Positions 4,035 through 64,000 of a DNA stretch of 64,000 bases are shown here, one piece after another. Made by a program: the position numbers and the translations under genes. Under the pieces are notes generated by a model. It saw nothing but the letters and a program-made list of their open reading frames with translations. It did not search any database and was not told the DNA's origin. Position 1 is the first letter of the stretch; each line of letters begins with the position of its first letter. Origin of the DNA: Candidatus Moraniibacteriota bacterium (GTDB lineage Bacteria; Patescibacteriota; Minisyncoccia; Moranbacterales; GCA-2747515); assembly GCA_027031495.1 (NCBI GenBank), contig JALVQA010000013.1:5714-69713 (forward strand), written 5' to 3'.

Positions 4035-4877
4035 TTATCGACGCTTTCGTTCTTGCCGTCGCTTGAGAATAAACCTGTCACTGAAACGATGTTTGCGACG
4101 TGTTTTTGTGCCAAGCGTTGGCTTGCCCCACGGTGTTTTCGGATATTTCAAACCGATTGGCTGTCGTCCTTCGCCACCACCATGCGGATGGTCAACAGGA
4201 TTCATCGCGCTACCACGTACATGTGGACGACGACGCTTCCATCGACTACGTCCAGCCTTACCAATGCGCTCTGCACTGTGTTCAAAATTACTCATCGCAC
4301 CAATCGTTGCATAGCACTTCTCATTGATGAGGCGAATCTCACCTGATGGCATTTTAATCTGCGCATAACCATTCTCAAGAGCCATAAGGGTCGCACTACT
4401 TCCAGCGCTACGCACAATTTGACCACCTTTGCCAATTTTCATCTCAATATTTGAAATAATCGTACCAGTTGGAATGCGTAGCAACTGGAGACGATTACCC
4501 TGCTCAATCGGTGCATCCGGCCCTGACTGTACAACCTGCCCCTTCTTCATACCGGCACTTGCTAAAATATAACGCTTTTCACCATCTGCATAGTGTACTA
4601 ACGCAATAATCGCTGAACGGTTTGGATCACGTTCAAGCGCAGCAATCGTGCCCGGTATGCCAAACTTATCCTGCTTGAAATCGATTATGCGATACATGCG
4701 CTTGTGTCCACCGCCGCGGTGGCGCACAGATATCTTCCCAGCACTCGTGCGACCAGCACGGTTTTTTATTGGCGCGAGCAAGCTTTTTTCCGGTTTCTTG
4801 TCAGAAACACCATCCGGCTTCACAATAGACATATTGCGTCGCCCCGCCGTATTTCGTTTGTAGATTTTAATTGCCAT
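4035..4877 (-). CDS. rplB: 50S ribosomal protein L2
   Basis: 280 aa with typical L2 motifs, including the [10 protein letters not shown] box. Confidence 0.95.
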
Positions 4878-15135: not shown

Positions 15136-15208
15136 GGGCGCATAGCTCAGTCGGTAGAGCAACGGCCTTTTAAGCCGATGGTCGGGGGTTCGAATCCCTC
15201 TGCGCCCA
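15136..15208 (+). tRNA. tRNA-Lys (anticodon UUU)
   Basis: 73-nt cloverleaf with acceptor GGGCGCA/UGCGCCC, D-arm GCTCAGTCGGTAGAGC, anticodon loop cuUUUaa, T-arm GGTTCGAATCC. No CCA is encoded. Confidence 0.9.
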
Positions 15209-15832
15209 CAAAGAAATAAAAACAAGCTCTTGGCTTGTTTTTTAATTATCAATGCTATAAACGCGGTAGTTTATACCTGACTTCACTATTCTTCAGAGGA
15301 ATATAACACTTTACTACTTGCTGTTATCAACCATCACCGCGTTTGAATTTGACATAGATAAATCTGATATCAGCTTACTTAATTTTACCTTACTGCTCCA
15401 TACATTCTAAAAACTTGCCGACAATGACAAGATGTTTATCACTGTCTTTAACTACGACTACATCGTCGTCGGAAGGAATAGCTCTCCTATGGGAATTAAA
15501 AACTCTATAAACCTTCAAAATTCTTGAAAAGCTTAATAAAGCGACTGAGAGAATGCTACTCCCTCAGTCAAAACGTTACTCCACGAGCAAATCCTTTTGC
15601 TCGTGGAAAAAATTTACCCTTCCAAAATCTCCTTCCATGAAGATTGGAAGGGCTTACCAATGACCTTCTTGTCATAGACCAGAGCGTGAGAGCATCAATC
15701 AACCTCCTCAAGGTCGCTCCGTCTGCCCCACGCCCATGAACAAGCACGGCGGAGGGGCTTAGCGCCGATAACTCATCCTCTAAGAGCATCCCTTGCAGAA
15801 AGGAATGCTCTAAATGAATAAGATGGCTACAA

Positions 15833-16966
15833 TCACCACCTATCGGTAGTGATTCCACCGCGAGATGCCGGGTCATTCGGGTCTGGGATATCATACTCTC
15901 TATTGAATATGACTTTCTCTCCCATTGTGGCACATACCCTTATGGTTGTGCCTGAGCCGAAATAAAGGTCCCGATAGCCACCAGCGGGTCTATACCCGTC
16001 AGCGCTCTCGTTGCGAAAGTGATTTCTAACAAATCTTATAGAATCACTTTCCCTTTCGGTTACCTCTACGGACCACTGCTCCCGGGGGATTTCAATCTCT
16101 TCAACTTTTTCCCCCACTGCTACAAAGGTATCAGTGGTTACTTTCAGGACAACATCAAACTTTTCGTCCCTGAAAGTTGTGCCGGCAGGTAACAACTTGC
16201 GCTGTTGTACCTTTTTTTCCATAAAAGCTTTTACGGGAATGTCAATGGAGACATCCTTTCCGTAAACTTTTCTTTTTACTGACTCAGTTTCAATTCTAAC
16301 CTCGTCAGCAATTAGAAATGTTTCATCCTCAGCAGGTCTCCCATAGGAAGCAACCGCCTTTGCGGCGATGTATTCTTCGAGCTGAGAATTACCCACTTTC
16401 CCATCAAAAATAACCTCGGTCGTTTTTGCTGGGGAGAACATCGCCCTTTCCTCAAGGAAAGTGACTGGACCAATATCAAGACTTATCGATCCGTCCATCT
16501 CCCCCTTTGGATCTGGTTTGACCCTAATGTCATAAATATGCGCATCAATCACATGGATGCACCTCTTGGCATCATATCTGCCGGCAGCAAGAATGATTTT
16601 TTCATCATCATTTACCTCCAGCACGATATCCTCCGGAACAAATATCTGACTATTCTCCATGTCAGGAATAATGTCCCCAGACGCCACCATTTCATCTATG
16701 CCATGGTGGCTACTATATCTTATGAGATGTTCCGGATCTATCTTTACCGTCCTTGGTTGAATGACTTCAGCAACCCGCGCTATAACAACCTTGTCAAGTT
16801 CGCGAATTACCTCTAAAACAACCTTGCAATTTGCATGGTTGTTTTTTAGCACGTCCATACCACCGGACACGATAATCCATTTATCATGCCTTCTTTTGAT
16901 AATGCAGTCCCTTGCATTTTTTTTGCTCGGGCTCAACTCCGAGATTTTAAAAATCAGTTCTTTCAT
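15833..16966 (-). CDS. Hypothetical 377-aa cytoplasmic protein of unknown function
   Basis: Long ORF with a GGAG ribosome-binding site 7 nt before the second ATG (MKELIFKIS...); an upstream ATG at 16984 is also possible. No family recognised; there is a C-terminal RFVRNH (R-x4-H) motif. Confidence 0.6.
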   Translation of the reverse strand: MKELIFKISELSPSKKNARDCIIKRRHDKWIIVSGGMDVLKNNHANCKVVLEVIRELDKVVIARVAEVIQPRTVKIDPEHLIRYSSHHGIDEMVASGDIIPDMENSQIFVPEDIVLEVNDDEKIILAAGRYDAKRCIHVIDAHIYDIRVKPDPKGEMDGSISLDIGPVTFLEERAMFSPAKTTEVIFDGKVGNSQLEEYIAAKAVASYGRPAEDETFLIADEVRIETESVKRKVYGKDVSIDIPVKAFMEKKVQQRKLLPAGTTFRDEKFDVVLKVTTDTFVAVGEKVEEIEIPREQWSVEVTERESDSIRFVRNHFRNESADGYRPAGGYRDLYFGSGTTIRVCATMGEKVIFNREYDIPDPNDPASRGGITTDRW

Positions 16967-17079
16967 CTTTACTCCCTGCGCCATGGACGGCGCGTTGAGG
17001 TTGAACCACTACCCTCCATGAGAGGGTAGACTAGACGTCTATGTGCCCGCAACTTGGAAAGTTGCCGGCACAATAAAAG

Positions 17080-17125
17080 TCCCGAGCAAGTGATGTCACC
17101 ACAACATCACCGCTCGGGAAAAAAG
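17080..17125 (-). terminator. Terminator-like hairpin downstream of the DUF1874-like ORF
   Basis: Stem tcccgagc ... gctcggga with an inner stem gtgatgt/acatcac, followed on the minus strand by CTTTTATT. Confidence 0.3.
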
Positions 17126-17233
17126 TGTTTTTTATGTCGTTACCGACTTTCGGGGAACCACCCCTGCGCACGGAACACTAACCGCACGCCCGTGGATAGC
17201 CGCCACGGACTTGGATTGCCTCGCCGGCGACGG

Positions 17234-17548
17234 TTAGGAAACCGTCACGAGGTACCACTTAATGGTGGCACCCTCCGGAAGGCTGGTTGCACCTTCCAGC
17301 AGACGAGGGCCGCGATACTGGCCCACCAGCACCGCCTCGCCTTTCTCAAGGGAGACGGTTACACGCTGGCAAGGCACAGCAACGCCGAGCTGCTCACCAA
17401 GGACGGCGGCAGTCTCGGCGTGACCGACGGCAGAGTCGAAACCCTGCGCGACGGCCTCGCGAGCCTCGTCAAGCGAGACCTCCTTGATCATGACTGACGC
17501 CGGAAAAGACGCCAGCATGTTCAAAGAAAAAGCGTTGAGCAGTTTCAT
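17234..17548 (-). CDS. Small GC-rich ORF resembling DUF1874 (viral AcrIII-1 / host Crn2 cyclic-tetraadenylate ring nuclease family) - tentative
   Basis: 104 aa (MKLLNAFSLNMLASFP ... AVGHAETAAV ... RVTVSLEKGEAVLVGQ...) with a GGAGGA ribosome-binding site 8 nt upstream. The N-terminal NAFSxNML-type motif and a mid-protein His recall the STIV B116 / SIRV1 gp29 family, but this is from memory. One 60-nt stretch counts 70% GC versus about 43% in the neighbouring gene. Confidence 0.45.
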   Translation of the reverse strand: MKLLNAFSLNMLASFPASVMIKEVSLDEAREAVAQGFDSAVGHAETAAVLGEQLGVAVPCQRVTVSLEKGEAVLVGQYRGPRLLEGATSLPEGATIKWYLVTVS

Positions 17549-17599
17549 CGCTCAACTCCTCCGGATTAACGCACCGGGGAACAGGTTCTTATTGTACTC

Positions 17600-19100
17600 G
17601 TTCATACATCACTGCATAAACGAGCGGTCACCAATGACCGACCACTTCACTCTTGGGTAACCAAGAGCTTATAGGCCTTTTTCAAACCTGTACTTTCGCG
17701 TCCGCAATTCACCAAGGCTTGCGGAGGCCCAAATTTGCCACTCTTCCGAGCGGCACGGTGTAGACAAAGCAAGGAGGAATCCTTTGTCCACACGGTGTCG
17801 CCAAGAAGAATTTGTGCGATTGGTTCTGAGAGGTCTGTACTCTCTACCTCCACGCGAGAGGGTTTCTCGTGGGAAGGATAAAGAGGGGGAGAAGTGTGCA
17901 CCACACGCTTCTCCCCGAAATAACCATGCGTGATTTTTTGTTATCCCCCCTCACGCTGGGGGCTTCCCGCTAGGCAGCTTGTTGTTTCTGCCTAGCGAGA
18001 AAAATCAGTTGGGCGGCACGGTGGTGCCGGGTGGCACCCCCGCGATTATTAAGGAAGCGCTGGGCCGTATTCGGCCCAGCTTCCTTTAAAATCTTTTCAA
18101 CCTTGCGCTCAATCCACGTTTTTTGCATATTCTCTCCCTCCCCATTAACTGAGGAGGGCCTCGTTTTGCCCCTCGCCGTGCGGGGCGTTTAATGTGTCCA
18201 ACGGGCGGCGAACTCCCGTTGGAAGAATTCTGTGCTCTCACCCGAGAGCGCTGTGGAGGCAATGCGTGTTGTCTCTACAGCGCTATGGGTGAAAGATTAA
18301 GTTGTTAAAGAGTCCCTCCACCAGGCAACGCTGCGTGCTGTCTGTGTGGGAGAGTCCCGTTTCGTGAGGGAACCGTAACTGGCGAATTTGTACGCCAGTG
18401 AACTGGGGGAAACGCAAAGGGATTGTTATATGACTTCTCTCCCCCTTTCCCCGCAGATCACTGCCACACAAAGCGTCAGTGCTTCTTTGGTAGGTGTCTT
18501 TTCTGCTTTTGGAGCGACCTTTTAGAGTGGCTCACGGCATGAGTGTGTGATACAAAAAAGCGATCGGGAGACGTCCTCTCATGTAATCGTTACCTGCACA
18601 CTGCAGATATTTCTCATCATAAGAAGAGATCTCCCGATCGCTCTGTTATTGACAACGGCCACCTAATGCGCCCGCGTCGTGCTTTCCTGTAGTAAATCAG
18701 AAAGACTCTCTCCTCGCCTGTCACACATCTCGTGTGATTTCTCTCATTACACTGCCTAAAGTGTAGTGAGAGAAGTTTTTTGCAATAAATTGTCTAAAAG
18801 AACGTGCCCTCAGTCCGTGTCCGTGTCTATCTCAGTGTGAGCTTATAATAGCACACATCCACATCTGTGTCAATACCCTTACTGGAGATTTCTGTGTGCT
18901 ATCACTACTTCTGACACGCACTCTATACTACCCTTCATTACTGTACTGGTGAGAGTATAGCACATATATATTATCATGTCAAGTACTTTAGGCATATCTT
19001 TTGTATCGCGCTTTTGATTGGGTGCGTACGTGATGAAGTTGTCAATACCTGCCGTTTTTATCATCTCTACACAAGCGCCGTGCACTGTGCTATAATCAGT
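17600..19100. other. ORF-poor, hairpin-dense, GC-enriched region: candidate large structured ncRNA or degraded mobile-element remnant (class unknown)
   Basis: About 1.5 kb with no ORF over 85 aa on any frame in otherwise gene-dense DNA, and many perfect stem-loops (17970-17995, 18053-18084, about 18135-18165, about 18200-18225). There is a 12-bp perfect long-range complement (18559-18570 with 18631-18642). Confidence 0.25.
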
Positions 19101-63161: not shown

Positions 63162-64000
63162 CTATTTTGCCCGCACAAAGTTAATGATTGCCGCATGCAC
63201 GTCATCATCCATGATGAGGGCGCGGTGATCAACGCCTGCACTGTTTCGGTACGTCACAAAGCGTGACGCAACAGGAAACGACGCAGAATCCGCTATAACC
63301 ACGCCGTCGCCGTTTGCATACCACACACGCTGCGGCGCGTTTGCAAGGACAACGGAGCGCGGATCACCGTTTGGCCAGCGCGTACGTGCTTTACACGGCA
63401 CGATACCGAGATCACGCACAAGAATTTCTTGTGGCGTCTTTGTGCCCGTGCCTGTAATGTTCAGCACCGTCGCACCATTTGCAAAGAGCGCACCGGCATT
63501 TGCATTAAGATCTTCCAGCCACGTATTGTGACGGCAGAGATCTTCGTATGCGACCGGCTCGGCAATCTTTTTTAGCGGATGCCAGCGACGGATGTAGTCA
63601 AACGTCGGTGTCAGTTTACCAACCGACGGTACATACTCCTGCACGTACTGATAGTCAAACAGCGCAGGACCATTCGTACTGACACCATCAAGAAACGCGC
63701 TGACGTCTTGGTTGATTTGCGCCCACTTCATGACGCCAAGAAGCGTCTCTTTGAGCGCACGTTCACCGCGCGTACCCATGACATCACCACCGTAGAGGTA
63801 GTACGCCTCTACAGCACCACGGTGTGGCGTGCCAACGAAGATGGCTTTTGCCACTTGCGCGCAGAGGCCCTTTTGCATGCATGCACGCACGACGAGACCG
63901 CCGTAGCTGTGCGCAACGATCGCAATAGTGCCACTGTCCGTTTGCTCCGCAAGGGCTCTGACCTGTGCATCAAGATACGGTACCAGCGCATCCGGCGTGT
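63162..64000 (-). CDS. Alpha/beta-hydrolase-fold lipase/esterase (GxSxG AHSYGG); N-terminus lies beyond the window
   Basis: The reading frame stays open upstream of the listed GTG start (... IAIVAHSYGGLVVRACMQ ...) to the window edge, with the nucleophile elbow AHSYGG as in Bacillus LipA-type lipases. Confidence 0.7.
   Translation of the reverse strand, partial: TPDALVPYLDAQVRALAEQTDSGTIAIVAHSYGGLVVRACMQKGLCAQVAKAIFVGTPHRGAVEAYYLYGGDVMGTRGERALKETLLGVMKWAQINQDVSAFLDGVSTNGPALFDYQYVQEYVPSVGKLTPTFDYIRRWHPLKKIAEPVAYEDLCRHNTWLEDLNANAGALFANGATVLNITGTGTKTPQEILVRDLGIVPCKARTRWPNGDPRSVVLANAPQRVWYANGDGVVIADSASFPVASRFVTYRNSAGVDHRALIMDDDVHAAIINFVRAK

Follow-up and report, generated by a model that had tools for sequence, protein, structure and literature searches.

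A 64,000-nucleotide (nt) stretch of DNA from a Candidatus Moraniibacteriota bacterium (GCA_027031495.1, contig JALVQA010000013.1, positions 5,714–69,713), here called the window, carries at 17234–17548 on the minus strand a gene for a 104-amino-acid (aa) protein that is assigned with high confidence to the DUF1874 ring nuclease family, viral and bacterial enzymes that break down the cyclic tetra-adenylate signal of type III CRISPR immunity. The coding sequence (CDS) of this gene and of most of the homologues compared is selected for extreme mRNA structure. It lies in an island that is hyper-structured throughout relative to dinucleotide shuffles and that forms a bounded, single-polarity unit of ~3.4 kb beside a tRNA-Lys gene. 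Together with a conserved leader and trailer, the gene is probably an anti-defence cassette of AcrIII-1 type and of mobile-element or phage origin, with a structured and gated transcript. An initial annotation made from the DNA letters had proposed an orphan DUF1874 ring nuclease on horizontally acquired DNA.

The ring nuclease gene and its protein

Judged by its sequence, the open reading frame (ORF) is a genuine gene. It starts with an ATG, and the strong ribosome-binding site and downstream hairpin noted in the initial annotation are both present. The Shine-Dalgarno (SD) sequence GGAGGA occupies 17562–17557, its last base 8 nt 5' of the ATG, and hairpins follow the stop codon. The peptides NAFSLNML, AVGHAETAAV, EKGEAVLVGQ, and RLLEG were all confirmed in the translation, with the histidine at residue 43. 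A protein search returned >613 homologues of 103–105 aa with 59–98% identity. An exhaustive search of 1.84 billion cluster representatives returned 2157 at E≤1e-3 and 1075 at E≤1e-10. Differences from same-length relatives fall mostly at codon position 3 (24, 15, and 62 at positions 1, 2, and 3 in related locus L008), and in four of five pairwise comparisons with relatives synonymous codon changes are at least as many as non-synonymous ones.

The public annotation of the source contig (protein P0124) begins the gene at Met11 and gives 94 aa. The 104-aa reading is right, because the Met11 start removes the invariant N-terminal NAFSLNM motif. The motif lost from the shorter call holds residues that contact cyclic tetra-adenylate (cA4).

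The ORF was compared with family profiles and solved structures. It matches Pfam PF08960 (STIV_B116-like, formerly DUF1874) over residues 2–77 with 44.8 bits against a gathering cut-off of 26 (E=1.4e-11), and PHROG 5063 with E=3.6e-17. Searches of PDB sequences with phmmer matched AFV3-109 (9e-9), SIRV1 gp29 (7e-7), 6scf, and STIV B116 (entries 2j6b, 2x4i, 6scf, and 2j85), where 6scf is the H47A form of SIRV1 gp29 in complex with cA4. The family assignment first made by resemblance is thus borne out by a score above the gathering cut-off and by direct matches to AFV3-109, SIRV1 gp29/AcrIII-1, and STIV B116.

An AlphaFold2 model was built from a 34-sequence alignment (predicted local distance difference test 97, predicted template modelling score 0.88). 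All 17 Foldseek matches in the PDB at E≤0.1 are DUF1874 structures. The 16 at E≤0.001 have query-normalised template modelling (TM) scores of 0.72–0.83 and include 6scf, 2j85, 2x4i, 2j6b, 8y7f, and 8y7g, so the structural comparison suggested in the initial annotation supports the same family. TM scores are 0.75–0.83 to viral structures of AcrIII-1/B116 type and 0.72–0.79 to Csx1-Crn2 (8y7f/8y7g).

In a HMMER alignment with SIRV1 gp29, H43 falls on His47 (Ala in 6scf), R82 on Arg85, and E85 on Glu88, and the histidine and C-terminal glutamate singled out earlier therefore both align. H43 is invariant in 34 homologues, and His47 is the absolutely conserved catalytic histidine of SIRV1 gp29 (bioRxiv 10.1101/778746). 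The cA4-contacting side chains of gp29 are N8, S11, N13, S49, T50, R66, and Q81, with R85 in the lid (bioRxiv 10.1101/778746). The window equivalents N5, S8, N10, T46, R62, Q77, and R82, plus E85, align with these and do not vary among the 34 sequences. Among cultured homologues the nearest is the DUF1874 protein of Thermoanaerobacterium phage THSA-485A (47% identity, E=2e-19), which abolished cA4-dependent but not cyclic hexa-adenylate (cA6)-dependent type III immunity (bioRxiv 10.1101/778746).

Other architectures were seen among family representatives. Tandem doubles of 214–259 aa have two matched stretches, and in other representatives of the same set (P0127, P0128, P0129, P0143, P0149, P0202, and P0240) the domain stands at the C-terminus of ~540-aa proteins, which may be Csx1-Crn2-like fusions.

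Transcript structure and the surrounding island

The window CDS folds at −176.6 kcal/mol, whereas its dinucleotide shuffles fold at −122.3 ± 5.6 kcal/mol (z=−9.7). Permuting synonymous codons, with the protein and codon set kept, still gives z=−8.9, so the structure is encoded in the placement of codons. Among host genes of the window the median z is −0.33 with dinucleotide shuffles (46 genes, minimum −3.8) and −0.66 with synonymous permutation (36 genes, minimum −3.2). For 91 homologous ORFs the corresponding medians are −4.55, with 67% below −3, and −3.7, with 61% below −3. Cultured examples are moderate, at z=−2.9 for the THSA-485A ORF and z=−3.3 for a Nitrosomonas plasmid ORF. Some hairpins within the ORF are conserved with compensatory changes (e.g., alignment columns 282–305). 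Others, on our reading of the alignment, appear to keep their place in lineage-specific registers, as at the Phe15-Pro16 codons, where flanking codons co-vary. The only other window gene that is clearly over-structured is a 242-aa ORF distant from the island, at 63162–63890 on the minus strand (z −3.8 dinucleotide, −3.2 synonymous), which has no PADLOC match.

The GC content of the ORF is 0.60 and that of its third codon positions (GC3) 0.69, in flanking 7 kb of GC 0.44. The initial annotation had read this composition as codon usage alien to the host. The richness stands; as a mark of recent transfer it does not simply hold, because it is at least partly a family-wide trait tied to RNA structure. 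In 46 of 70 homologous loci the ORF is >0.05 GC richer than its own flanks, and this richness probably belongs to the same phenomenon as the RNA hyper-structure.

The RNA-like sequence suspected around the ORF proved to be a conserved leader motif and a trailer; the hyper-structured CDS and the bounded island had not been foreseen. The elements of the cassette are as follows.

17549–17727, minus strand: structured 5' leader, most likely an extended DUF1874 motif (RNAalifold, minimum free energy [MFE] folding, covariance models)
17727–17701, minus strand: leader 5' hairpin
17700–17691, minus strand: leader GCGAAAG hairpin
17691–17684 paired with 17588–17581, minus strand: leader helix P1, followed by P2
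17673–17668 (UAUAAG) and 17649–17644 (UGAAGU), minus strand: leader internal loop
17667–17650, minus strand: leader P3 hairpin
17639–17597, minus strand: two inserted leader hairpins
17595–17588, minus strand: leader ACAAUAAG junction
17557–17579, minus strand: SD-sequestering hairpin, GGAGGA (17562–17557) paired with an upstream CCCC(GG) run
17234–17548, minus strand: ring nuclease gene, 104 aa, ATG start
17009–17233, minus strand: structured 3' trailer, MFE −113.9 kcal/mol, z=−5.8
17208–17136, minus strand: four conserved trailer hairpins
17118–17081, 17071–17043, and 17029–17009, minus strand: three strong trailer hairpins ahead of the next ORF

About 180 nt 5' of the start codon are conserved in related loci L010, L007, and L015. 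The start-proximal stretch with the SD hairpin is 88–95% identical to L010, above the CDS, and is the most conserved part of the unit. RNAalifold of the window sequence with these three loci gave 47 pairs, 28 of them with compensatory changes, and the window leader alone takes the same fold by MFE (z=−5.05). Folding of the leader yields −75.8 kcal/mol for the minus strand and −58.6 kcal/mol for the plus strand. The SD hairpin occurs in both MFE and centroid structures and has compensatory changes in L015 and L007 (consensus columns 174–195). Translation is probably gated at the RNA level, because this last hairpin of the leader sequesters the ribosome-binding site; the modelled hairpin is the candidate gate.

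Many more distant loci have a shorter leader of ~73 nt directly before the ribosome-binding site. Its layout is P1, a loop AAUAC / GAnAAUAAG, P2, a loop UAUAAG / YGAARU, and the P3 hairpin. P2 is 92% and P3 86–90% paired (13, then 19 sequences), with both-side changes in 10 of 11 pairs, and this pairing is far above that of shuffled and slid controls. P1 scores only 55–59% paired; its register shifts in the alignment, and it is real by eye. A covariance model built only from short-form leaders of other loci gave a single match at E<0.1 in the window, directly 5' of the gene (17638–17678, E=2e-4; 17620–17695, E=5e-6 with filters off; model R2, E=1.5e-3). The window leader is therefore a variant with two hairpins in the 3' junction. 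Across 100 loci, 22 of 22 motif matches are on the gene strand, and where the upstream sequence is long enough (~85 loci), the motif directly precedes the DUF1874 gene in ~19. No Rfam 15 family was found for the leader, trailer, or upstream region at the gathering threshold or at E≤10 (window and 34 related loci).

On the 3' side, conservation with compensatory changes extends over ~95 nt past the stop codon in L010, L007, L015, and L018, and seven hairpins in a row fill the ~250-nt spacer up to the next ORF. Outside the leader-ORF-trailer core (~17,726–17,140) no DNA or protein similarity to other loci was found (tblastx and nhmmer, 119 loci). Leader, ORF, and trailer thus travel together as a ~600–860-nt cassette, because they are conserved jointly and their flanks share nothing. 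The cassette is ~77% DNA-identical to its nearest relative and recurs in unrelated genomic contexts.

The island and its neighbour contain the following features.

~15500–18950, minus strand: hyper-structured island of ~3.4 kb, putative single transcription unit (sliding z-scores)
18982–18954, minus strand: sigma-70-like promoter match, TTGACA-17-TATACT, extended −10 TG, 11/12 matches
18873–18845, minus strand: sigma-70-like promoter match, TTGACA-17-TATTAT, extended −10 TG, 11/12 matches
17741–18850, minus strand: hairpin-dense upstream region of ~1.1 kb with no convincing gene
18649–18552, minus strand: 98-nt hairpin with U-run
18128–17970, minus strand: possible 52-aa ORF with a GGAGG site
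15833–16984, minus strand: 383-aa ORFan, second island gene, likely start ATG 16966 with a GGGAG site
15570–15542, minus strand: terminator-like hairpin (terminator scan)
15136–15209, plus strand: tRNA-Lys (UUU), found by ARAGORN and Rfam (76.1 bits), ~300 nt from the island edge

Every 240-nt segment from ~18,950 to ~15,500 has a z-score of −3.4 to −10. Host flanks are near 0 and the edges are sharp, with both strong promoter-like sites at the upstream edge and the terminator-like hairpin at the downstream edge. In 15 of 17 island segments the minus strand is the better-folding one. Across the window and related loci the gene-sense strand folds better in 70 of 77 segments, by a mean of 10–13 kcal/mol per 240 nt. 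Similar bounded islands surround homologues in L010, L021, L008, L037, L040, and L025.

The 383-aa ORFan has no Pfam, PHROG, or PADLOC match and among 5.8 billion proteins matches only itself. Its RNA is over-structured (z=−3.8; −3.7, −4.9, and −3.2 against synonymous permutation). The upstream region folds with z=−12.3 at 17741–18553 and z=−6.8 at 18545–18845. Its ORFs have no Pfam or PHROG matches, the region has no Rfam match, and the upstream 1.4 kb shows no phage match by blastn and no similarity in 119 related loci.

The host is a Moranbacteria-like bacterium of the candidate phyla radiation (CPR), with EF-Tu 86–89% identical to proteins named Candidatus Moranbacteria. The surroundings of the island are chromosomal and include ribosomal, suf, dnaB, and cysS genes. 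When the larger ORFs of the 64-kb window were scanned with PADLOC, no cas10, csm/cmr, CARF, SAVED, or cyclic-oligonucleotide-based antiphage signalling system (CBASS) components were found. The scans matched nothing beyond generic ATPase, HhH-GPD, exonuclease, and nuclease-domain (SNc+LTD) entries and the DpdF C-terminal region. No CRISPR-like repeat array was found in the window. The gene was called an orphan in the initial annotation, and this holds within 64 kb, because no cas10, CARF, or SAVED gene or CRISPR array is there. The tRNA-Lys gene is a possible integration landmark. For an empty-site comparison, two close relatives (EF-Tu 96% and 93% identical) were examined; synteny is lost before the island, or the contigs end there.

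Related loci

The leader motif is repeated in consecutive intergenic regions in L040 and L091 and is single in the window. In L025, L028, and L034 it is also found ahead of other small genes. A Cys-rich protein of ~85–94 aa (C..C plus a later Cys, VHKPCGEKL) is encoded at L025:1099–1353, L028:4071–4340, and L034:1189–1473 with the motif 5' of it. Its gene adjoins the DUF1874 gene in L028 and L034 and is in the same locus in L025.

Three loci lacking the DUF1874 motif have a different, locus-specific leader of 55–168 nt in near-identical repeats (L032:3821–3987 and 4646–4813; L022:3935–4000 and 4499–4564; L076:925–979 and 1357–1411). One copy stands directly before the DUF1874 gene, spanning the start codon in L076, and the second lies 65–190 nt after the stop, where it presumably precedes the next ORF.

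Repeats around the homologues comprise leaders and 3' elements in multiple copies and, often, hammerhead ribozymes. The only Rfam families in the other related loci are tRNAs and Hammerhead_3, the latter in L011, L024, L025, and L041. L025 has six copies at E≤1e-4, one of them above the gathering score. A crude descriptor gave 37 candidate hammerhead cores on the gene strand against one on the opposite strand (108 loci). Same-strand arrays of type III hammerheads occur in L025 (1757–4780), L041 (3483–3537 and 4421–4498), L048 (1300–4526), L011, L019, and L024, often as near-identical repeats on both sides of the DUF1874 homologue. Two crude pattern matches in the window are inside coding regions and were taken as chance.

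A 74-nt element is repeated at L040:3753–3826 and 4326–4399, directly after two consecutive ORFs, and contains CCGGAUAAAAGUGG. A resemblance of CCGGAUAAAAGUGG to the twister ribozyme core was not confirmed by Rfam. Six loci encode a TrmB-like helix-turn-helix regulator of ~250 aa 5' of the DUF1874 gene (L040:417–1151, L041:1264–2028, L028:2601–3377, L048:6–743, L049:2196–2978, and L011:3165–3908). It is mostly 1–2.4 kb from the DUF1874 gene, across a gene-poor, structured spacer, and only ~140 nt from it in L028.

Function, alternatives, and known systems

By analogy with SIRV1 gp29 and the THSA-485A protein, the window protein would be a dimeric, metal-independent enzyme that binds cA4 at the dimer interface and buries it, for which the 47% identity to the phage protein is the nearest support. 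The Arg82 lid loop would close over cA4, and His43 as general acid would cut the ring to di-adenylate with a 2',3'-cyclic phosphate (A2>P). The loss of cA4 would switch off cA4-activated CARF effectors. The gene would be the payload of a small leader-ORF-trailer cassette inside the ~3.4-kb unit by tRNA-Lys. The occurrence of the cassette in unrelated contexts and the absence of a cyclic oligoadenylate (cOA) system within 64 kb make an anti-defence role most likely. The DUF1874 family has been counted in 36 phage genomes against 7 type III CRISPR loci, and orphan copies are the norm. Homologues were found on plasmids (a conjugative one of Nitrosomonas, others of Thermus and Thermoanaerobacterium) and on 25 IMG/VR contigs.

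The sense-strand structure is set by synonymous codon choice in the window ORF and most homologues, and by the dinucleotide-shuffle z-scores it reaches across the island. It most likely acts on the transcript. It could stabilise the transcript or hide it from nucleases specific for single-stranded RNA (ssRNA) or from RNA-guided targeting while the enzyme is being made. Such shielding might be from cA4-activated, ssRNA-specific HEPN RNases or from recognition guided by CRISPR RNA. As a tentative possibility, this DUF1874 clade may reside in multi-kb "stealth" units whose sense RNA, that of coding regions as well, is selected for near-complete local pairing by way of synonymous codon choice and co-varying codons and is punctuated by conserved leaders or self-cleaving ribozymes. 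These would resist collateral RNases, type III targeting, or both, with leader-gated translation that is conceivably responsive to signalling nucleotides.

Several points weigh against the anti-defence cassette. A distinct island, a tRNA-Lys neighbour, an ORFan, and a recurring cassette suggest viral or mobile encoding, yet no integrase or phage structural gene was found in the island by Pfam and PHROG searches, and no direct repeat of the tRNA-Lys 3' end (att) was found. The mobile origin is circumstantial for these reasons. The absence of a type III system covers the 64-kb window, and a distant one elsewhere in the genome is possible. Cleavage of cA4 is attributed to the window protein by family likeness and through its THSA-485A relative. 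Only six of the seven further cA4-contact side chains are kept, as Ser49 of gp29 is replaced by Glu45 at a family-variable position. The SIRV2 homologue (gp37) showed no anti-CRISPR action in the native virus and has a second role in inhibiting a host methyltransferase (bioRxiv 10.1101/2023.01.10.523387). Filters-off scoring found no second leader-motif copy in the island, and Rfam found no hammerhead in the window, even at E≤10. At 17741–18553 the plus strand folds at −367.5 kcal/mol against −341.5 kcal/mol for the minus strand (40 G-U pairs). The plus strand thus folds slightly better here, an exception to the sense-strand polarity, and the region could hold an antisense or independent structured RNA.

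The gene could instead encode a host-domesticated Crn2-type ring nuclease that clears cA4 from a cOA system elsewhere in the genome and so limits self-damage. Crn2 is an accepted cellular role of DUF1874, with the same family and active site, and the gene is chromosomal and among housekeeping genes. This origin is doubtful, since Crn2 is rare (7 loci) and defined by type III adjacency or fusion, and no cas10, CARF, or SAVED gene or CRISPR array lies within 64 kb. Copies of the cassette are also found in unrelated contexts, and its neighbour here is an ORFan, within an island set apart by composition and structure. It is unlikely that the protein mainly does something other than degrade cA4. 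It might then bind a host protein, or act on other cyclic or 2',3'-cyclic-phosphate RNA from ribozyme-processed transcripts. Hammerhead products carry 2',3'-cyclic phosphates, and the strand bias of hammerhead cores in related loci (37 against 1) and the leader motif before other small genes fit this view, as does SIRV2 gp37, which reportedly lacks native anti-CRISPR activity and acts on a lysine methyltransferase (bioRxiv 10.1101/2023.01.10.523387). However, the cA4-binding and catalytic residues are invariant across the subfamily, which is hard to explain without that ligand, and a 47%-identical phage protein blocks cA4 signalling.

The unit might also be the remnant of an element that passes through single-stranded DNA (ssDNA), as an integron-like cassette whose attC is unusual or as an integrated ssDNA replicon, with a structure that serves DNA recombination, replication, or packaging. 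The structure is of one polarity, and a single polarity is that of the packaged strand of ssDNA phages. Repeated leaders and trailers flank consecutive small ORFs in related loci, and Weinberg et al. (2017, NAR 45:10811) speculate that the DUF1874 motif is an unusual attC or ssDNA element, given its occurrence in consecutive intergenic regions. This explanation is quite improbable. Neither an integrase nor a Rep or capsid gene was found; the motif, directly before the ribosome-binding site and ending in the sequestering hairpin, stands where an mRNA leader would; promoter-like and terminator-like sites mark the island edges; and the hammerheads of related loci act on RNA. A spurious ORF, a chance frame in structured non-coding RNA, had been raised in the initial annotation and is refuted. 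In its favour, the ORF region matches a non-coding RNA in its degree of structure, and conserved structured RNA lies on both sides. The ORF is nevertheless not spurious, because it is intact and under protein-level selection in relatives where the flanking RNA-like sequence is also conserved. Its Pfam, PDB, and fold matches are strong, the frame is kept in thousands of homologues, substitutions are mainly at third positions, and functional residues are invariant.

Taken alone, the protein is one more confident member of a known ring nuclease family and widens its range to a Moranbacteria-like CPR host without a nearby cOA system. The conserved leader before a cA4-degrading enzyme is a candidate for ligand or protein control of anti-defence expression. 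The hyper-structure is common to a large, mostly metagenomic clade. We know of no reported case of such selected mRNA structure in bacterial or phage genes. If the structure does shield transcripts from collateral RNases or RNA-guided targeting, this would add a new principle to the arms race between phage and host; to our knowledge, an RNA-level anti-defence layer of this kind has not been described. Bounded islands of strongly negative folding z-score would then be a signature for anti-defence loci in uncultured lineages.

The cassette was compared with known systems. With AcrIII-1 (SIRV1 gp29, 6scf/2x4i; THSA-485A) it shares the Pfam family, the fold, a single domain of ~100–115 aa, the catalytic His, the lid Arg/Glu, six of seven further contacts, and a location away from CRISPR loci. 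It differs in lying in a Moranbacteria-like chromosomal island with no recognisable phage genes and in having Glu for Ser49 of gp29. The window gene also has a conserved structured leader and trailer, and its CDS is far more structured than that of THSA-485A, with z −9.7 against −2.9. Crn2 of the Marinitoga Csx1-Crn2 protein (8y7f/8y7g) shares the domain and active site (TM 0.72–0.79), whereas the window protein is a stand-alone 104-aa protein with neither the Csx1 fusion nor the adjacent type III locus, the contexts that define Crn2. As to integron cassettes, no integrase-like protein was found in the island (Pfam, PHROG); attC sites were not specifically modelled. Hammerheads flank single prophage genes, including the anti-restriction gene ardA in Agrobacterium (Perreault et al. 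2011, PMC3088659). Several related loci share this arrangement of same-strand hammerheads on both sides, close to the gene in L025, L041, and L048, whereas the window cassette is bounded by other structured elements, none of them a hammerhead. The DUF1874 motif is described by Weinberg et al. (2017, NAR 45:10811) as multistem, with a highly conserved internal loop, and as lying in 5' untranslated regions (UTRs), often in consecutive intergenic regions. The window leader is likewise multistem, has a conserved internal loop, and lies in the 5' UTR of a DUF1874 gene. It is a single copy, extended by two 3'-junction hairpins and extra 5' hairpins. On this match to the verbal description of the published motif, the window leader is most likely an extended form of it.

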